DNA of 20,000 bases from Cystobasidiomycetes sp. EMM_F5 (Eukaryota): positions 183,268 through 203,267 of the forward strand of contig JBPGPT010000027.1 of the NCBI GenBank assembly GCA_051047955.1. Direction: 5' to 3'. A program made the position numbers and the translations under genes. This document shows, one piece after another, positions 1 to 18,733 of this stretch. Every line of letters begins with the position of its first letter. The first letter of the stretch is position 1. The notes under the pieces were generated by a model. It had not been told where the DNA came from. It made no database searches and saw only the letters and a list, made by a program, of their open reading frames with translations.

Positions 1-304
1 GTATTGGACGATGCCATCAAGCTCCGCATCCTTGCCAACCTGCACAAGCATCGTTCCATCCTGCCACTCCGGCCGACCAACATATCGCTGCAAACTGGCG
101 GTTTTGCTTTTTGCTGAACGCTTTCAGTCGAGACGGGAATCCAGGTGGTGCTGCGTCGCTGTTTGAGCTGTGATTCTCGGCATCAGGCGTCTGAGCCAGC
201 CCTGCCGTCGTCGTGACGGTCAAGACATCTTGCGTATTTTGTATGGCTCCTGTCGCAGCCAATTTGTCGTCGCCTATAGCTACATCACTTGGCTGGAGCT
301 CCAT
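1..304 (-). CDS. MFS transporter, 5' part only (tandem paralog of the 495..2623 gene); continues beyond the left edge
   Basis: ATG at 304; exon 1 ends KKQNRQFAAICWSAGVAGWNDACA followed by a phase-1 GTTGGC donor. Same motif and intron position as exon 1 of the neighbouring MFS gene. Confidence 0.85.
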
Positions 305-494: not shown

Positions 495-2623
495 TTACGA
501 TTTCCTTCTGTCGGCCTCGGGGATGAAGAAGAAGACTACGCCCATGCCGACCAACAGGCCAATGATGACTGGTTGCAAGACGACGGGGCCATACTTCTGC
601 GCAAGAACACCAGTGACTGTGACAGACTGCATTCAGTGGACGAATAGCACACACCTATGCATCAAATCACGTACGAAAAGGAAAGGCTGCACTACCCGCT
701 TGGCCCGCAGCTGCTACCAGTCCAATGGCTCCAGTGTGCAGCGGTTTCGGCAGTGTCTTTATCATTGCCATAATTCCAATACCAAAGAATGTCGACAGCA
801 GGAAGCCAATCAGACATATCGCGACCGCTGTAAGGTCAATATCGTATGAAACGTCAGCAGCTGTTCATATTGAATATCATAAGTCCACAACGCCGTACCG
901 TTGCCGATAAGCTGTCTCCAAAACCACACACTGAACTCAAGAAGAAGAGACAACGTGAGGTACGCGTAGAGGCACTTCCGATCTCCTAGCCGGACTTGCA
1001 GATGTGGCAAGGTAAGTCTTCCCAAGGTAATGCCTGACCAGAAGCGTAAATATGATTGCAAAAATCGTTAGCTTTTCGCGATTCAATGCGCAGAGGCTAA
1101 CTTATCTGTTGCTACATATCCGACGTTTGCCGAACCGCCTCTGCTCTGAAGCAGGAAAGAGACTGCCCACTGATTTTATGTGTCAGCTAGACAACGCTGA
1201 TGTCACGGATAGAGGGCGCCTACTCCTCCTATTGACACCTCGGCCCCGACACTAGAAAGTAATAGGGTCAGCCGCCTGAACAAGCCAGATCAAGTGTGAC
1301 TTGCTAAAAGAACAGGAAAAGAGCAGTAGCCCAAACAATCTTTGACTTGAAAATTAACTTGTTCTTGTCGGAAGTTGAGTATATGCGCTCAGTGTCCAGA
1401 GCCAGCGGGCGCGTAGAATCCGTAGTCATCGGCGTAGCTGCTCCTGAGGGTGATCCGATACCTGTCTCTTGCAACTCTATGCTATGTCCATTTCTTTCGC
1501 TGCTATTTTGAGGCGCAACCTTACGCTGCGGCCCGCATTCAGGGTCGCGACCAAAGGCGAAGAAGAGTGAGATGGAATTGAGTAACGCTAGACCTAGACT
1601 AATGCTAAAAAAGTAGCTGAAGCGAACACCGGAACTGGCGAGGGCGGTTGCGGCCAGAGGAGACAGCAGCGCGCCAACGCCCTTCATGACATGAGGTGCG
1701 TCAGTAAATCCAGGTCCCCTAGCGTAAGTAAGAGGGTATACTGCCTACGTAACAAGCCTGTGCATGATTGATCATTAAATTTGAATTCGGAAGACTCGCT
1801 AGCCACGATGAGGTTTGCGCCTGCGACTCATACGATGAGTCCGATAGACTATGGACTTGACAGATGTGCCCACCATCATGAAGGCCAAGCCAAATCCAAT
1901 CAGGCTGGCGTATACGACGGGAAAGAGCGGGAATGGAGGCGGGGCCAATAGAACTGCATATCCGCATGTTTGAAGCAGGGCAGCGAACGTCAATGTCTTG
2001 CCCATACCCAGGCGATCTGTTGCGAGGTTGTTAAGCAGTCCGGCAACGGCGAAACCGCTGAAGGCGCCGATGAAAATTGTAGAGACCTCGATGTAATTTA
2101 TCTTTTGACAATGAGGATCAGTTTGCGGACACGCGTCAGTGACTGTCGCTCCAATCTTACGTCAAAGAATCTTTCCCTGTTTCACAGCGTTTGGAAGCAA
2201 AACATTGAGCCGAAACCTGCTACTTGTGTAGAGTAAAATATCTCAGCGTACATGAAGGGTATCAATGCGCCTGCATCGGCGTGCACACGGAAACAACGTC
2301 ATATCACCGTCCCAAGTCAGATTCGATAGACGGGGAGTGGAAATTACAAGACTCGGCGTACCCGCGCATGCATCATTCCAACCACCAACACCTGCCTGCA
2401 AGCATGCCGCTGCAAACTGCCTATTCTGCTTCTTCTTTATGGTTGCGATGAATCTAGCTCGGCGGTTCTCTGTGCTCGATTGAACGCGGGACGATGGGCC
2501 ATCTTGTGTGAAAACAGGTGGCTCGACGAGTATCTTCTTGACTATATGCGCTGCAGATGGACTCTGCGGCAGACTCTCCAGCTTTGCGACCTCTGCGGCT
2601 GTTTCCTGATGCAATGAGGCCAT
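495..2623 (-). CDS. Major facilitator superfamily transporter (fungal FucP/Bsc6-like), multi-exon
   Basis: Hand splicing gives GWNDACAGALIPFMERFFD-INYIEVSTIF...LATDRLGMGK...IGFGLAF...HAQACYGVGALLSP...FLFFYVGAEVSIGGWAVSFL...GYVATGFWSGITLGR...GQAGSAAFPFLTGVLAQKYG...LQP, with stop TAA at 495..497. Many hydrophobic segments. The model requires a GC-AG intron (1252..1304) and an AT-AC intron (1046..1105). Confidence 0.9.
1046..1105 (-). other. Predicted AT-AC intron with U2-type signals (60 nt)
   Basis: Minus strand reads ACA G|ATAAGTTAG...GCTAAC...CATATTTAC|GC TTC TGG. Removal restores GYVATGFWSG; retention hits an in-frame TGA. Confidence 0.8.
1252..1304 (-). other. Predicted GC-AG intron (53 nt)
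   Basis: TTT TA|GCAAGT...GCTGAC...TTTCTAG|T GTC GGG GCC GAG restores FLFFYVGAEVSIGG; the unspliced frame stops at TAG. Confidence 0.88.
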
Positions 2624-6479: not shown

Positions 6480-9400
6480 ATGCCCACGAGTGACCTGGGT
6501 GAGCGTCAGCATGGATTAGCATGTCAGCCATCAGCCCTAACGAGCTTCCGCATCAGACTATTCGATATTTCTGCTCGACGACTTCGACAGCCGTCAATAT
6601 GCCCAGTCGCTGTTGAATGGGACTGCGATTGCCAGCAGAGCGCAGCCAGACGGCGAAGCTCCAGCTGACAGCATTGATCCACGTTCTATCGAAGCACTAC
6701 AGCAGCTGGGACTATCGCATAGTCTCCCAGCGCGTCCGAGCGGTGCCAACGTCGCGGCGTCATTCGAAAGCAGCGCGAAAGGCAACAATCTTGCAAACGG
6801 CGAGCTGATTGACCGCAGTAAACGAGATGCTTTTGCTTCGACATTCGCTAAAGCTGGATCTGGCGATGTCTCGGCTGCGTTGGCCAAGCTGTCGTCCGCG
6901 TTGGATGGGCTAAACAGGCAACTCAGGTCGGAAATCAACACTCACCATGCCGCACTGCTGATTCAAGCTGGATCAGTGTCCGTACTGCAAGATAATCTTT
7001 CGCAAGTACGGACAGGCTTGAGCCAGGTCGAAGGGAGCGTCGAGCGTTTGCAACGAAAGATTGCAACACCCTACGTCTCGCTTTCGACAAACCTTGAACG
7101 TCTGGCAAAGCTACAAAGCGCGTCCGATCTTGCAAGGAGAGCCAATAGGTTCGTTACTCTGGCTCGCAGGCTCGATGTGCAAATGGCAGAGCTCGACGCA
7201 GCCAACGCAAGACTGCACGATGGTCCAAAGACCCCGTATCCTGCAACGCCAGCTGCAGAAGCTACACCTCGCATGTCTCGTGTGAATTCTCAAGAGAATA
7301 TTGCAGAGAGAAGAAACCATAGCTCGGGCGAGAGAGCTTTGGGCGAGGCGGCATTGACGCTCGCGGAGCTGGGTATGTCAAAGTCTCACGTCGTATCGGC
7401 GGATACCTGATAATCGGAACACCTAGATATGCTGCTGCAAGATAATACAGAAGCGGCAGGCACGGAGACCGCACTAGTGCCATCTATCCGCTCGATACAC
7501 GCATTGCGAGACCATGTGCCAGCAGTCGAAGCGAATCGCGAGCGTGTGATAAACGCAATGGAGATTATGATTCGTCGTGGACTACAAGAACTGGTAAGCG
7601 ACATTATCCTTGATACCGGCTTCATTGCTAAATTGTGCGGAATCCCGGAATGTCCTGCAAAGAATCAGTCTTTGCTGGCGTCATCGCTGCAGACGGCCTA
7701 TAATTTATCAGTCCTTCCGCCGCTTGTTGCATCACTCGTGCAAGATCTTATTGAAGCGATCGAATCGCGCATCAAGAATGCCTTTGACGTAAACGCTCTG
7801 GCGAGAGATGCCGCATTACGCGCTGGTGAACCGTATTTGGGAGCAAGCGCTGCCAGTAGCGTATTCTACAAAAGCCGAGCGAAGACTGAGCCGACGAGCA
7901 GCAATCTGTCGCACTTTCAGGCAGCTTTGTGGAACAGGCTGGAAGGCCTGATAGAGGACATGGCGGGATGTTGCATCAAAGTAAGTCCGCGCCTGTCCTC
8001 GAATAGAATGTCGCTGGAATTTTCTTGCCGCATCAGGTGTATGTGCTGGAAAGGGTCCTCAAGCTCAAAAAGGATCAAACCAAGAATGCAACATTTTTAG
8101 ACGATGCCTTGACTGTAAGGTCTGCTTTAAAGCTGCCTGAGTGTAGCTGACCATCCCCATGTTAGGTCTTGGAGAACAAGCCGACTTTTACGTTCTGGAC
8201 TACACTTTCACAAAGTTTCGAGACGCATTCACGCGAGGCAGCACGATCTTCCAACTTCGTTCAGCAGTCTCTTTCGCTAACCTACCCTCGCCTGCTGCGG
8301 CTGTTTCACGAATTCTTCTCCAAAATTGCTCTGCAGTCCGATACCGTCTACGCACAGACTCAACAATCGCCTGAGACTGTACTTATACTGCGATCCATCT
8401 CGTCTTTCGAAAGTTCGTACATTGTCCGCTCACAAAATAGAATGTTGGAAGCGGTCGGGCAAGCGTTCGCCAATGCGCAGCGGAATCCACCAGGCAGTCA
8501 GGAGGGTATCGCTGTTGCTAGAGTCATCAGTAACGAGCTTGATGCAGCGAGATTCGACCCTCTACTTGTCAAGAGTATAGCAAAGACCGTAGCGAAGGCC
8601 ATCGATAGCTTCGTCGATAGGAGCGAGACTCTGGTGAGTCGATGACCGTTTATATGGATGCTGTTCTAGCCGTGATTTGATTGGGTGGTATTCAGTGTGT
8701 GACAGACTACACGGCCGTATCGCTTGCCGGTCCGCACCCCACAGCAGCGCAGCAGATTAATGCAGATTTGGCTACGGCTCTGTATCATCTGTGGTCGCCT
8801 CTCACTCGAGTTCTAGTGAGCTATCCACAAGAGATCCAAGAAACCCTTCGACTCAAAGTCAAGGTATGTAAGAAAGTGATCGACGATGAATCCCAAGTTA
8901 ATGTTCGCTTTTTCGCCTACGCATCAGTCTATAATCGAGACACTGTCCGAAGTGACTACGCCTTTATTTGCAGCCATCAGGAGAGAAGTTGCAGCAATCA
9001 TTGCTCGCATGCATCGTACAGGTTACAACAAACCCTTGGATCCGACGACGACGAGCGTTTTCATGCAAGATCTCAGCGACAAGCTTGGGTATATCCGAAG
9101 GCAGATACTAGCCCCGCTTAGGATTGGCGAGCTATCCAAAGAATGGTGCGCGATGCTCATTCTGATGAGCGTGGTGACTGATGCTGCTATAACAGGGTCA
9201 TCGAGCTTTGCAAGTTTACGATTCAAAGATTCGTACTACACATGTCTATAGTCCACCCGCTTGGCGAGGGCGGAAAACTCAAGCTCACGACGGATTGTAC
9301 CACACTCGAATTTGCAGTCGCGCAGTTACTCGGCGACTTTAAGCTCAATCTGTCGGTCCTCGGCGACAGTTTCCGCGTCTTGCGCTCCTTCCGCCCGCTT

Positions 9401-9733
9401 CTGTTTCTCGAAACTGCCGCGTTGGTGGACGCAAAGCAGACTGCAGACGTGCCTGCTCAGATTTTGCTACACCACATCATCGTTCGAGCTGGTAGCATCC
9501 CCATGCCGCATCAGGTCCAGGGCTGGCAAGAGACGGAATACGTCAAGTTTGTGAGTGAACACAGCGATCATGAGAACAGGAAGCTAGTCGAGATTGCACT
9601 GAAAGACTGGGAGGATAAGGGCATGCCCGTCACGGAAGCGGGAAAAGAGCATAGTGCGGCCGAGTGCGTCGCGCTAGCTAGACAAGTTTTGGATAGAGAG
9701 AAGCAGCGCGAAGCTGCTACGAGCGATAGCTAG
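6480..9733 (+). CDS. COG5: Conserved oligomeric Golgi complex subunit 5, multi-exon
   Basis: ATG 6480 plus intron 6499..6556 gives MPTSDLDYSIFLLDDFDSRQYAQSLL. Further motifs HHAALLIQA, SLQTAYNL, YPRLLRLF, ELDAARFDPLL, PLGEGGKLKLTTD, LRSFRPLLFL. Stop TAG at 9733. Confidence 0.92.
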
Positions 9734-9823: not shown

Positions 9824-10902
9824 ATGACTGCAGAAGCTCGCCAGGAGGAGCTTGAGGTGTGCGTAGTCTGCTGTATGCTGGTTTCTACCATGCTGGGCTC
9901 AGACTGACTTTGAAGCTGACGCAAACGCAGCCTAGAATCCATATTGGCTGAAGATTTCCAGAGTGCGATAAATGGCTGCATAGACTGACGCGGGCTGACT
10001 TGTGCGACTTGGCTGACGCATTTCCTGTATCTCAGAGGTTTCCGACGATGAGCTGACGGTCCGAGTAGAGCCAGAAGAGGGCACATCGACCGAACCCCGT
10101 ATGCAAAAAATGGTCGCCAAAATGGCATATGCGTTTGATCTTGCTGACAGAATGTCTATCCTAGCGATTCTCCTGCTACGGGTCAAGTATACTCCAACGT
10201 ATCCAGACGAGTTGCCAGACTTGGAGCTCGAAATTATCGAGAGTGGCACTGAGGAGGATCATCTAAGCCAAGATGAGCAGGAAACGCTGCTACAACGACT
10301 GAGAGAGGTTGTGAGTCTGCTCTGATCAACACAATCGCTCCCCACATGAGCTGAATTTTTCGCTAGGGCGAGGAGAGCCTCGGGATGGCGATGGTGTATA
10401 CTATGTCAATGCAACTCAAGGAGTCGCTCACAGAATTACTCATCGCAAAGGCATCCGCGAGAGAAATGGAAGAGCAAGCTTCGCAATTGCGAATACAGGA
10501 GGTGCGGCAGATTTAGGGCCGGTTTACTGCTTCTCGTCTGACATCAACACTTTTCAGGCGGAGCTTGCAAAACCCAAAGGTACGCCTGTAACAAAGGAGA
10601 ACTTCCTAGCCTGGCAAAAACGCTTTGAAGTCGAGATGGCTGCCAAGCGCGAGCAAGAGCAAATCGAATTTCTCCGCACCCTACCCCCCAAAGAGCGGAA
10701 AGAGCGAGAGACCATTATAATGCGCTTGAGCGGCAGGCAGATATTCGAGCACAAGCGCGGTAGCAAGGATCAGGATGAGGAAGAAGATGAGGAGGGAGCT
10801 CAGCTGATTGACATTTCGAAATACGACCGAGAACAACGGCAGGATGATGCAGAGTCTGACGAGGAGGATGAAAAGGGCTTGGTGTACTCTGATAGTGACT
10901 AG
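9824..10902 (+). CDS. GIR2: RWD-domain protein of the GIR2/RWDD1 (DFRP2) type, multi-exon
   Basis: MTAEARQEELEVLESI, YTPTYPDELP (RWD YPxxxP), EESLGMAMVYT, GTPVTKENFLAWQKRF, LSGRQIFE and an acidic tail; stop at 10902. Confidence 0.9.
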
Positions 10903-12203: not shown

Positions 12204-13656
12204 ATGTATGCTGCTCGTATGGCTGGTTCACTGGCGTCCACCGCGAGCTGCGCGAATGCTGGCTCGAGTTTGCGCGCAGTTCAGCGACTAGGATTGCTGA
12301 ATCGTCATTTGGATACATCCTTTCCATCAAGTCATAGACCGTCGTCCAGTTTATCAAACAGCTCTTCGTCGTCATCTTCCTCTTCCTCCTCTTCATCATC
12401 GAAATCTTCTACCGCAACTTCAGCGTCACCGTCAACTAACGCAACTTCTCCACGTTTCCGATTCCACGTCGCGGCGTCATTTCTAGGCAAACCTCCAGAA
12501 TACTCGGCAATGAATGGTTCTAGCGATTCAATCTCGTCAGAGCAGAACTATACGCATTCCTTGCCCAAATCATCAAAAATAAGGACTTGGGTTACCGACA
12601 CGAAAGCCAAACACGGACGTTTCACCATTGCACAACAACAAGAAGATGCGCACGGCTCAAAATCCAAGGCGTCCAAGCAAGGAAAGACCGCATCCGACAC
12701 GCCAGTAGAAGCCAAGAAGCAAGCTGGATCTGGCGACGACTTCTTCTTCTTACAAGAAAACAATGTTGAAGCGAATGGTCGCTTGCTTATCTGTGGAGTT
12801 GCGGATGGAGTCGGAGGATGGTCAGAATCTGGCGTGGATCCCAGCGCTTTTTCGCAAGCGTTGATGTTTTATGCCGATAAAGCTGCACAATCTGCATTGG
12901 TGTCAGAAAAACCATCGGATGCTTCGGATGCGAGCGAATGGACAGATGGCGATGAGACGTATCCTCACAACATACTACAAAAAGCATTCGATGATGTACA
13001 GAAGGATTCAGAGATCGAGGCTGGTGAGTCTCTTTTCGAATAGACTCCTAAAAACATAAGTGATTGAATGAGCATGAGACAGGGTCCTCAACAGCTTGTA
13101 TTCTTACGCTTGATCCGTACGACGGCAGTCTTCGAGCAGCCAACTTGGGCGACTCCGGGTTCCTAATTCACCGCAATAAGACCGTGATCCACCAACAACC
13201 CGCACAAACTCACGCCTTCAATACGCCCTTGCAGCTGAGCAAGCTGCCGCAATCTATGTTGAAGCAAGGCAACATCACTGATCTACCAGCTTCGGCCGAC
13301 TTGTTCACCTGCAAGCTCGAGAAAGACACTTGGGTTGTCTTATACACGGATGGCTTTTCCGATAACGTATTCCCTGCCGAGCTCATCGAGTTAATCAAGC
13401 GCGTAGAGGAGAAGAACGAAGACCCGGACGTCCAGTCCAAGCGTTTGGCAGATACACTCGTCTCTTATGCTCGCTTGTGCGGGGAAAAGACGGACAAGAA
13501 ATCGCCATTCGAGTTGGAAGCTCGTCGAAACGGACTGCTGTTTAAAGGCGGGAAGGTCAGTGCGCAGGGCTTCCACGTGTACTAGTCAGAATTCTGACCA
13601 GATCTTTGCAGCTTGACGACGTCTGCATGATTGTCATCAAAGTATGTGCAGCGTAA
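12204..13656 (+). CDS. PTC7: PP2C-family phosphatase, PTC7/AZR1 type, probably mitochondrial
   Basis: GDDFFF, GVADGVGGW, AGSSTAC, ANLGDSGF, QTHAFNTPLQL, TDGFSDN, GGKLDDV (after splicing). Basic, Ser-rich, acid-poor N-terminus. The exact C-terminus could involve one more intron. Confidence 0.9.
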
Positions 13657-13884: not shown

Positions 13885-16800
13885 CTACGACTTGGACTTG
13901 CGTGTGGTACCCTTGGTAGTAGCGGATTTGGTAGTAATAGACTTTCGCTTCTTGGCTGGCGGCGCAACCGAATCCTCGTCACTTATTCCATCGCCATTGC
14001 TTTCTCTTTTGACGGAGAGCGTTGAGCCTTGCCCGGCATCGCTTGCAGCGTCACCATCTTTCGCATTTGCACGTGAGGCTTTGCCTTTTCTCGCTGGATC
14101 TTTTCGAGCTTCTTCCGGAGCGTGTTCCTTCTGGATGAGGGAAATGAGAGTGATGCACCTCCTTCCAATCTCAATGGGTGTACGAGACTTGATAAACCAG
14201 TTGAATCTGAAATCAGGCCAGTCGAGCACTTCGCGCTTGATCCTGTCGTATACGTCATCGCTGCCCACACCGTGTCTTGCCAGGGCACAGACGATGAAGC
14301 GATCCTCCTCCTCGGAATACGTCTTTGGCCGTTGTTGAACAGGGTACTTGATTGTCAATTGTTGTAGGGGGTGAGGATACGAAGCGACAATATCCTTGAT
14401 AAGCTGCGTTAGGCGAACATTCTTTGCATGTTGCTTCTCGGCTTCGGTGATCTTGCTAACTTGCCGCTCCCAGTCTGGTTGTTGTACGTCAGCAAAGCAA
14501 GTCATGGATCAGTGTGCGACCCGTCCCTACCCTCAATCTCCTTGTAACGCTCCCAGAAGACATCCGAGTAGCGCTTGACATCCTCTACGCTCTTTGCGCA
14601 TTCGGCAGCAATGCCGTTGAGGTCCTCGCGACCGTATCTCTCGCAGCCTCGAATAAATGCCTGGAAGTCACGCTTGTGCCAATCGCCAAAGCCAGTATTC
14701 TGCAGTGATTGCTTCTCCGCTTGCTCTTCTTCGGTAAGCGGTTCAGCTGTAAACAAGATTGACAAGTTAGGCCACGCGAACAAGTAACGATAAGAGAGAC
14801 TGACCATTATCAATATCAGCTTGCTCCTCCACCCGCTCCGCTTCAAGCTCTTCGGCAGTCATAGTTTTGTCTATTCCCAAAGGCACCTGGAAGTCTTGTA
14901 GCTTCTTCTGGTAATTAAGCTCGAGTTCTTGCAGCTCGAGTAGTCGAGGATCGAAGAATTGCCAATCACCCCTATAACCAATACCCTCAGCGATGTCATT
15001 ACACATGCTCAAAAAGTGGAAAACACTCACACTTGACCTTTAAGCTTGAGCTTTGCAGGTCGACGGCGATGCACGACCGACGAATAGTCTACTCCGAAAT
15101 TGGCTTTGCGCTCACGTTTCGATGGTTCGAGGAAGAAGAGGGCCTTCTTGGGTGCCTTTCCAAACGTCTCACCCTCCCATTCCCTCGTTCCGGGCGCATC
15201 AGACTTGAAGTTGTGCAAGTCATCGAAACCGAGACTCGCATATTTTGCATTCAGCTCTGCCGTTTTAGATTCTCCACGTTTGATGACGTCGTCAATAGCA
15301 TCGTCTATATCCATGCTCTCTTTGGCAGTCATGATTCGCTGAGCACCGTGCTGAATCATTTCTACCAGATCGTCTTTGCCTGCAGCTTTGTTGACGTTTG
15401 TGCTGCGGCCTTGCTGGATAACGAGCTGATCGAGTCGCAGCTTCTGTGCGGCTCGTTCCAGCACCTTCTCCTCGACCGCGTCCTCGGTGATGAATCTGAA
15501 AACGTAGACTTGCTTCTTTTGACCGATACGATGTGCGCGATCCATTGCTTGCAGATCGGCCTGCGGATTCCAATCGCTGTCGTACAGTACGACAATATCA
15601 GCAGTAACGAGGTTGATACCGAGTCCACCAGCTCGTGTAGTGAGCAAGAAGATGAATTTCTCAGAGTTTGGCTTATTGTATTCGTCAATTGCGGCAATAC
15701 GATCTTCATGACTGGTTGAGCCGTCAATTCGGCAGTAGCCATACTCGCGCAGGAAGCAGTAATCCTATGGCGGATGAAGAATAAGTAGTCTGTCAATGTC
15801 GACTGAAATGCAGGAGAAAGCCAGCGTACCTCAAGAAGATCGAGAACTCTGCTCATTTGCGAAAAGATGAGCACGCGGGATCCCTTCTCCTTCATCGTTC
15901 TCAGCAGCTTATCAAGGACCTTCATCTTGCCTGCGTTATCGACGAGGTGTTCATCGGTGGTATACGGCGGTCCAGGTTCCGCGCCATCAAAGAGATAAGG
16001 ATGATTGCAGCACTTGCGGAGCTGCATGACGATGTTGAGAAGGCGAGTCTTGCCCTCCTTCTTGCCCACCATCCCGTTAACGGCATCGATGTCCTTCTCC
16101 AGCAGCGATCTGTACCACTTCCTCTGCATCTCCGTCATGCCGACGTAGAGATTGATCTCCTTCTTCGGCAGCAAGCTCTTTTCCACATCAATCTTGACGC
16201 GACGAAGCAGGAAAGGCCGTAAGACTTTATGAAGTTGCTTGACCACACCATCCTGATCTTCCTCCTTACTATCAAGTCCATTGCCTCCTTTGGATGCTTT
16301 TGGCTTCTTGTCTGGGTTCTCTGCCTCTTTATCCGCTTCATCAATCGTCTTTCCGCCAGTCCGCTCACCAAACCAGGCATCGAAATCACCAACATCCGAA
16401 AAGACATCCGGGAGAAGGAAGTTGAGGAGTGCCCATAGTTCGTGTAGGTTGTTTTGCAGCGGGGTACCAGTAATGAGCAGTCTTGCTCTCGATTCAAATA
16501 TGCGTACAATTTGCGAGAGGATCGAATTTACATTCTTGATTCGGTGAGCTTCGTCAATGATAATGTACTCCCACGACAACTTTTTTAGCGTCGACTTTTC
16601 CCGCTGACAGATTTCGTACGAAGTGATGCACACATCGAAATTCTGGGTGAGAATCACCTCCTGACATTGTGCGGCACGTTCCTGCTTGTCGCCGCGGAGT
16701 ATCATTGTGCGGAATCCGGGAACCCAGTGGGCAAATTCACGAGACCAGTTGTCTAGTGTCGACTTGGGAACAATCACAAGATGCGGACCTGGAATATCAC

Positions 16801-18733
16801 GATGAAATTTGAGGTAGCCTAGGAACGAGATGGTCTGTAGTGTCTTTCCGAGTCCCATCTCGTCTGCCAGGATTCCGTTGATGCCGTTGTGGTAGAGCGA
16901 GATCATCCAGTTCAAACCTTGTACCTGATAATCTCGCATTTGACCACCCTTGACGACTGTATGGAGAAATTCAATCCCACGCGGACGAATCAAATAGGCG
17001 GAGACAATCACATCAGCCTATACTGCAGCCGATACTGAGTATTAAAGCAACCCACAGGCTGGCGATTCAGTAAAGACAAAACTATCATCCTCGCCATTCT
17101 GGTTCTCGCTACCATCAGCAAGGAGTTCAGCATCTTCCTGCTTTTCACTCTTTCTGCCTCTATGCAGTGCCGCCTTCTTAGTCGCAGCAGCAGCAGCAGC
17201 ACTACTTGCCGCTTTCTTGTCACGTGCGGCTTCGCTGTCCTCAAGAAGCAATGCGAACTCTGGATCTCGCGATTTTTTGAGATTGATAAAGTGTTGAAAG
17301 AGATCGGTCTGCCCGAGGAGATACGAGAAACGCTTGATGGAATCGGCGGCCTGTCATTCCCAAAGGAGAAATAGCGTGCAAGGAAGAAGAGTTCGGTGGA
17401 CGGAAGCGACGCGAAGACAAGCATGGACGGGTAGACGGTAAGCGGAAATTGTTACGGCAAAATACACAAAAGACCGGGCCGTGCGTCAGTCCAGCTGCTC
17501 CACTCGGACGTGTGAGACAGGCGACTACCCACCTTCTTGTCATTCACACCCCGCCTTGCTGCAGAGAGCTGAGATTTCTGGGCTGCCCGTTTTTCCTGTC
17601 GATGACGCGCCGTGTTCCAAAGTAGTACATAATGACATGAATGGCACATCTTTGATCAGCCTACTCCACTCCTTGCAGGTGTTGTCAAACGTCTCACCTT
17701 TATACGGCGAGAGACAGGGCGTGTGATGCGTTGTATTACAGGTAGTTTCAATGACAAGGATGACGCGTGACGCATCTCCATCAGCCCACACCCACTCCCT
17801 CTTTACATCTCATGTCAAACCACCCCACCTTTTTAGCACTCCTCTTATTCTGATTCTCCAACCTCTCTTTCAGCTTTTCCTTTTGTCTCTCCGTCATCTT
17901 TTTCGGCGTCGTCTTTACTCCGGTACCCCCCTCGTCATCCAACGCAATCTCATCATCGTCGTCATCGTCTGACGAGTTGTCGGAGTTTGATGATGCTAAA
18001 TCCATCTCTAGCTCGTCCCTGTCGTCCTCGTCGGGAAGTGTCGATCTGGATAGTTTGGATGGTCCTGCTGGTTGGGGAGCTACAGAGGGCTGTTGGTGAG
18101 CGGGAGAATATGAGATGGAGAGGGAGGATGGGGGAGAAGCGTGTAAAGAAGGCAAAGAGAGCATGTCGGTGAGTGGGAGAAATAAGAGATGGACAGGGAG
18201 AGCGTGCAAGATGAGGGAGAAGTGAAGAACGGGGATTGCAGAGAGAAAGACGGATGAGAAAGAGAACGGGGGATTTTAGAGAGATAGAAGAAAGCAGGAC
18301 GGAGGATCCAGAGGAAGGGCGGACAAGAGAAAGAACCGATACAAAAGAGAAAGAAAGAACGGAGAAGAGCATTAGAAGACGGAAGAGAAAGGAGAGAGAG
18401 AAAGAAAGAAGGAGAGAAAAAACATTAGCACTCCTCATACCTCACTCCTCAGGACCTTCACTCCTCGGGACCTTCGGCCCCTTGATCGTTACGGCCTTCG
18501 TCGTTAGAACTCACCTGCCTCGACGTCGCCCTGCTATCATCCACGACGATATCACTGAGCGTGTCATAATCCCCATTACTGCTCCCTTGCGCAGATGGCA
18601 CCTGAAGCATGTTTGCAGACTGTCCAATATCTCGACGCGTAGATTGGAGTCAGAGTGGGCGTGTCGATGGTATGAACGAGTGCTCGCAGTCAGTGTGGGT
18701 GTATATACTCTCAAGAGCACCACTCACGCTCAT
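13885..18733 (-). CDS. ISWI: ISWI-family SNF2 chromatin-remodelling ATPase (Isw1/Isw2-like), multi-exon
   Basis: [49 protein letters not shown] region (YSEEEDRF...[11 protein letters not shown]) and N-terminal [13 protein letters not shown]. Proposed exons: 18728..18733, 18515..18601 (or ..18619), 17829..18089, 17533..17595, 17056..17350, 15830..16956, 15031..15764, 14805..14971, 14531..14746, 13885..14474. The 5'-most exons are less certain than the core. Confidence 0.93.
18424..18505 (-). repeat. Intronic GAGGAGTG-repeat element, copy in ISWI intron 18090..18514
   Basis: AACGACGAAGGCCGTAACGATCAAGGGGCCGAAGGTCCCGAGGAGTGAAGGTCCTGAGGAGTGAGGTATGAGGAGTGCTAAT; three GAGGAGTG units; aligns by eye with 19802..19899. 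Confidence 0.8.

Follow-up and report, generated by a model that had tools for sequence, protein, structure and literature searches.

The transporter gene and its AT-AC intron

The window, by which we mean the whole stretch of 20,000 nucleotides of Cystobasidiomycetes sp. EMM_F5 that was analysed, carries on its minus strand a gene for an MFS transporter and the start of a tandem paralogue of this gene, and the features of both are given in Table 1. The eighth of the ten introns of the transporter gene is a 60-nt intron on the minus strand (1105-1046) that starts with ATAAGT, ends with TTTAC and lies between ...ACAG and GCTTC.... The original prediction had described such an AT-AC segment with GCTAAC inside it but had omitted the strand, and on the minus strand the description was found to be exact.

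Table 1. Features of the MFS transporter gene and of its tandem paralogue in the window
Feature	Position	Strand	Details
MFS transporter gene	495..2623	-	11 exons, 495 aa, one terminal stop; the nine introns other than the AT-AC one placed by hand
GT-AG introns of the MFS gene	2361-2271, 2251-2177, 2160-2102, 1873-1821, 1748-1682, 1223-1170, 898-828, 674-617	-	
GC-AG intron of the MFS gene	1252..1304	-	53 nt, donor GCAAGT; GT-AG in the paralogue
Exon 8, upstream of the AT-AC intron	1106..1169	-	64 nt
AT-AC intron	1046..1105	-	60 nt, phase 1, splits the Gly codon (residue 356) ahead of Phe-Trp; intron 8 of 10
Donor ATAAGT	1100..1105	-	scored against predicted GT donors and for U1 pairing
In-frame TGA upon intron retention	1083..1085	-	second stop, TAA, at 1070-1068
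Predicted branch site GCTAAC	1067..1072	-	branch A at 1068, 22 nt to the intron end; top candidate with a genome-trained matrix
Acceptor TAC	1046..1048	-	TAC in the paralogue's intron as well
Exon 9, downstream of the AT-AC intron	899..1045	-	147 nt
First downstream AG	1034..1035	-	would end a frame-keeping intron of 72 nt from the AT donor; costs four conserved residues; paralogue without AG there
Tandem paralogue, start	1..304	-	first exon 304-40; runs left of the window into L005; AT-AC intron at L005 8825-8761

The conserved motifs of MFS_1 (PF07690) transporters, a group called 'fucose permease' by some sources, align with the protein of the window gene, which may be BSC6-like. When single frames of the gene were scanned with PF07690, one of four matched, at 24.2 bits, which is below the cut-off of 33.4, and the homologues P0002 and P0003 and the public model of the paralogue, P0004, pass this cut-off. 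P0002 and P0003 are the closest full-length homologues; their contigs barely exceed the coding sequence and therefore they are probably transcripts from other organisms. None of the solved structures matched P0002 at an E value of 0.001, and an Rfam scan of the window gave no matches. The window gene also holds micro-exons of 19, 16 and 28 nt, and its intron at 1304-1252 is of the GC-AG kind, which makes up 42 of 1505 predicted introns, while the counterpart in the paralogue (L005 9030-8976) is GT-AG. Elsewhere in the window exons were predicted on the minus strand at 13888-18161, presumably for an ISWI-like chromatin remodeller, and on the plus strand at 6559-9727, 10038-10899 and 12222-13653, which we assume to encode a COG5-like protein, an RWD-domain protein and a PP2C-like phosphatase, respectively.

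The donor of the AT-AC intron scores at the 98th percentile among the GT donors predicted in the genome and that of the paralogue at the 97th. Together with the exon end CAG it pairs with the 5' end of the genome's own U1 at positions -3 to -1 and +2 to +6, the mismatch being at +1. The combined scores of branch site and acceptor are at the 35th percentile for the window intron and at the 20th for that of the paralogue, the predicted branch sites being GCTAAC and CTGAT, respectively. As the original prediction had it, retention of the intron brings an in-frame stop, the TGA at 1085, to which the TAA at 1070 can be added, and the nearest GT donors, at 1115 and 1101, are out of phase, being 82 and 68 nt from the first AG (1034).

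Placement of the junction in two gene copies

The junction was compared with homologues by means of a profile made from 158 of 168 stored proteins, leaving out P0001, P0004 (the model of the paralogue itself) and proteins with lengths outside 250-700 aa. Around the site, all excisions that keep the frame and leave no stop were scored, with no weight given to their end bases. The AT-AC excision of the window gene ranked first of 1485 with 82.9 bits, in agreement with the original prediction, and under the same scoring the AT-AC excision of the paralogue ranked first of 1250. In the window gene the AT-AG excision to 1034 ranked 319th with 61.9 bits, and the best GT-AG excision ranked 935th with 40.0 bits. 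The spacing of 15 residues across the junction is identical in 151 of the 158 homologues, and 135 of them have Gly at the interrupted codon.

The tandem paralogue, in which the original prediction had proposed to look for the same intron, has at the identical codon a 65-nt intron of the form ATAAGT...TAC. The two proteins are 70% identical (329/473). Synonymous sites between the copies are saturated (pS 0.76) and dN is 0.08 after residue 310, in the C-terminal part; for the residues past the junction the values are dN 0.08 and pS 0.77, which amounts to strong purifying selection. The interiors of the two AT-AC introns are 0.52 identical compared to 0.48 for shuffled sequences, and the interiors of shared introns are generally near the level of shuffles. 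The paralogue shares nine of the ten introns of the window gene, and in none of the eight shared introns other than the AT-AC one is the donor hexamer retained; the donor type of the AT-AC introns is that of 116 of the 1463 predicted GT donors. That both copies have the same ends despite saturated synonymous sites and interiors at shuffle level effectively excludes sequencing error and pseudogene decay. By these comparisons the ends and the donor of the AT-AC introns date far back and are constrained, and both gene copies are alive. The tandem copies also differ by gain or loss of introns, the one at 2251-2177 being present only in the window gene and those at L005 8490-8427 and 8184-8112 only in the paralogue.

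A small gene finder was trained on sequence of two other contigs (800 kb in total), in which it predicted 1505 introns (1463 GT-AG and 42 GC-AG) with a median length of 60 nt, and in the held-out window gene it recovered the other nine introns exactly. Given a prior of 0.002 for AT-AC introns it selected both of them, in the window gene and in the paralogue, and when they were disallowed it invented introns at 1101-1034 and 975-912 in the window gene. The margins in favour of AT-AC, 2.4 and 2.6 log units, are small and within the range of decoy calls, and therefore this result agrees with that from homology but is no proof; the case rests on the homologues and the paralogue. The expected mis-modelling by automated annotation is also seen in the public model of the paralogue: compared to our model, P0004 lacks segments of 21, 40 and 83 residues and carries an insertion of 20 residues but is otherwise the same, and the gap of 83 residues spans the AT-AC junction.

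Other readings of the junction were weighed as well. The AT donor may be spliced instead to the AG at 1034, the first one downstream, or both acceptors may be in use; this AT-AG excision is in frame and free of stops, and AG is the normal acceptor, but it loses four residues including the conserved Trp, scores 21 bits lower than the AT-AC excision, and has a branch-plus-acceptor score of -0.2 compared to 2.0 for AC. The paralogue has no AG at this place and the gene finder never selected AT-AG in either gene, so we regard this reading as very unlikely. It is more improbable still that both genes are pseudogenes or give rise only to truncated transcripts that retain the intron, for although retention yields stops and a non-canonical +1 base could reduce the efficiency of splicing, both genes read without interruption for about 494 codons and strong purifying selection acts beyond the junction. 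As to an error of assembly or base calling at the intron ends, which the original prediction too had thought unlikely, the same two mistakes would have to have occurred twice, in copies that have diverged and are separated by about 2.2 kb, and we give this explanation next to no credence.

Major or minor spliceosome

Minor introns typically have AT-AC ends, and removal by the minor (U12-type) spliceosome, or descent from a U12-type intron whose inner signals have drifted to the U2 type, therefore has to be considered. The inner signals, the donor ATAAGT and the branch site GCTAAC, are of the U2 type as had been proposed; there are four mismatches in eight positions to the U12 donor ATATCCTT in both copies, and the U12 branch site TCCTTAAC is absent from the window intron as well as from that of the paralogue. 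Across the genome the pattern of U12 donor plus branch site is without excess (6 matches compared to 6 in the control), and among the 1505 introns predicted in 800 kb none starts with GTATCC. The nine introns found at the same site in other fungi, which are described below, all carry U2 donors. Surveys of Ascomycota and Basidiomycota have come upon no introns of the minor type (PMC10639083, PMC2846911), and PMC10639083 reports minor introns to be absent from Dikarya; on the other side, PMC2396436 reports U12 and U4atac-like RNAs, possibly relics, in the rust Phakopsora. U11, U12, U4atac and U6atac were not found among the 41-50 candidates scored per family in this genome, where U1, U2 and part of U6 were found, but these negatives are weak: no family matched in the control genomes, among which there was no eukaryotic positive control, and the genome's own U2 and U6 genes are interrupted by insertions that resemble introns, so that a U12 or U6atac gene broken up in the same way could have gone unnoticed. 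The minor-spliceosome proteins CCDC84 (PF14968) and PF18036 were likewise not found in the genome, by a search that had no working positive control. The result for the U12 consensus is more telling than the negatives for the snRNAs. Taken together, current U12 splicing of the AT-AC intron is largely refuted, and a U12-type intron, whether active or a relic, is highly improbable.

The snRNA genes that were found have features of their own. The U6 gene (L006 1554-1300, minus strand; G000:C221, about 636.9-637.2 kb) is seemingly split by at least three GT-AG introns of the mRNA type after the ACAGAGA box, as judged by eye against U6 motifs, which would explain why the Rfam match is limited to model positions 1-50 and is below the cut-off. 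The U2 match (L089 1501-1742; G000:C68:218639-218880) covers 242 nt for a model of 192 positions and has a GT...AG insert inside. There are two equal-scoring matches to U1, inverted and about 6 kb apart (L170 and L171; G000:C13:250997-251173 and 257125-257301). Introns in U1, U2 and U5 snRNA genes are reportedly present in Rhodotorula hasegawae.

We also looked at how frequent AT-AC introns are in the genome. In the 800 kb surveyed, out of 18.3 Mb, the gene finder made four AT-AC calls among about 1505 predicted introns compared to 0-5 (mean 2.6) for 16 decoy end pairs, and it recovered 662 of 1074 planted AT-AC introns. We therefore rejected the idea of a genome rich in AT-AC introns, since even if all four calls of this survey were real the frequency would be about 0.4%. 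The best of the four (L105) is in a DEAD-box helicase gene, which we take to be DBP5-like, and there a GT-AG intron of 110 nt gives the better fit by eye; of the remaining three, one has a downstream stop, and the other two show gains of at most 0.1 together with stops in their flanks. On inspection none of the four was convincing.

Origin and significance of the AT-AC intron

Metagenome contigs were scanned for the same site with an exact pattern, the downstream exon preceded by AG or AC, which gave 65 loci; this pattern is biased and the counts are not frequencies. At nine of the 65 loci a homologue carries an intron in the same position and phase; all nine introns are GT-AG with U2 donors, and five of the nine homologues are closely related to each other, which leaves about five independent cases. 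The other loci comprise 43 that are intronless, 2 that are unclear (intronless by eye) and 11 without a tblastn hit. AT-AC orthologues were sought in the same scan, but all 8 matches with AC are among these 11 without a hit to the family, and the scan may hold no close relative. The same-site GT-AG introns belong to distant subfamilies, and the nearest locus by eye (L052) is intronless. In the genome itself a third paralogue (C177) is intronless at the site, its Gly-Phe-Trp junction being uninterrupted, and a more distant paralogue (C157; L023 about 1727-1675) carries a GT-AG intron that lies downstream of the AT-AC site by about 10 nt. The short conserved helix around this site holds several introns of independent origin. 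From the sequences compared here a GT-AG ancestor of the AT-AC intron is plausible, and repeated gain of introns at one site is equally possible.

U1 and U6 bind the donor and U2 binds the branch site of an intron, and its first and last bases touch at exon ligation. Very probably, as far as can be told from the sequence, the window gene contains a genuine U2-type AT-AC intron, of the class known as AT-AC II, and encodes a full-length MFS transporter. We infer that the transcript is spliced at the AT-AC junction, that the U2 spliceosome does this, and that the intron may descend from a GT-AG intron. U1 and U6 would read the donor through a sequence that is otherwise a near-perfect major-type donor, U2 would recognise a branch site of the usual fungal kind, and when the exons are ligated a pair of A at +1 and C at -1 would replace the usual contact of G at +1 with G at -1. 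For the yeast P complex it has been described (bioRxiv 10.1101/212811) that AU/AC ends could be tolerated, and such ends had turned up in yeast as suppressors; the A-C pair itself was modelled and not observed. The AT-AC ends would predate the tandem duplication and have been kept in both copies. The simplest account is that the state is locked in, as altering one end alone would spoil splicing, and the mismatch at +1 would force the remainder of the donor to be near-perfect. Since a change of a single end would spoil splicing, the ends could be conserved without the need of a regulatory role. A rather doubtful extension of this is that a natural switch from GT-AG to AT-AC, in a lineage that would lack a minor spliceosome, was kept because it is useful, slow splicing throttling both copies of the transporter in a manner that depends on conditions; the retained intron would then lead to an early stop and to decay of the transcript.

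The U2-type AT-AC class has already been described, and on the comparisons made here the window intron is a new, well-supported example of it. As given in portions of PMC1557818, the AT-AC II class includes introns of human SCN4A/SCN5A, which were tested, and of TAF2, was hypothesised for xylanase genes of filamentous fungi, and is rare, with 24 among about 610,000 introns surveyed; ATAAGT is given as the donor consensus of U2-type AT-AC introns in a passage of PMC5029451. The window intron shares with those of SCN4A/SCN5A and TAF2 the AT-AC ends, the ATAAGT donor, the conservation of the ends among paralogues and the rarity, but it differs in being short (60-65 nt in the two copies), constitutive-looking and in a basidiomycete MFS gene, and its dependence on U2 is a prediction. 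With U12-type AT-AC introns only the end dinucleotides are alike. For fungi, an AT-AC junction in RPL30 of S. cerevisiae is described in the same passage of PMC5029451 as a side product of 1-2% with a non-consensus donor, whereas the full-length protein of the window gene would depend on the AT-AC junction, which is kept in two copies. AT-AC junctions are also mentioned for Fusarium graminearum (a section of PMC3577648) and for Trichoderma longibrachiatum, where they are 69 of 14305 junctions (a section of PMC4324775), and like the window intron these occur in fungi thought to be without a minor spliceosome. A few 'other AT-AC' introns are listed in part of PMC2846911 for many species including Phakopsora, and AT-AC introns are described as rare in fungal annotations in excerpts of PMC7072748 and PMC3033335. 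In the literature searched, neither this intron nor any other AT-AC intron of Cystobasidiomycetes was found described, though supplementary lists may include it, and useful AT-AC counts for Cryptococcus or Rhodotorula were not found either.

A direct consequence concerns the gene models, as annotation limited to GT/GC-AG introns drops about 83 residues of the paralogue and a gene finder limited in this way mis-parses the window gene. Beyond this, the intron is a well-supported basidiomycete case in a small class, of which the fungal representatives in the literature consulted are for the most part hypotheses or individual junctions from RNA-seq. No new machinery is indicated. What the two gene copies suggest is that a full-length protein can depend entirely on AT-AC ends, and that such ends can survive while synonymous sites become saturated. 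The same codon hosts GT-AG introns in other fungi and therefore the site suits the study of how end bases are switched. If slow splicing of the AT-AC intron does throttle the two transporters, they would be a natural test of how the coupled change from G-G to A-C is crossed, and of whether the outcome is regulatory or merely trapped.
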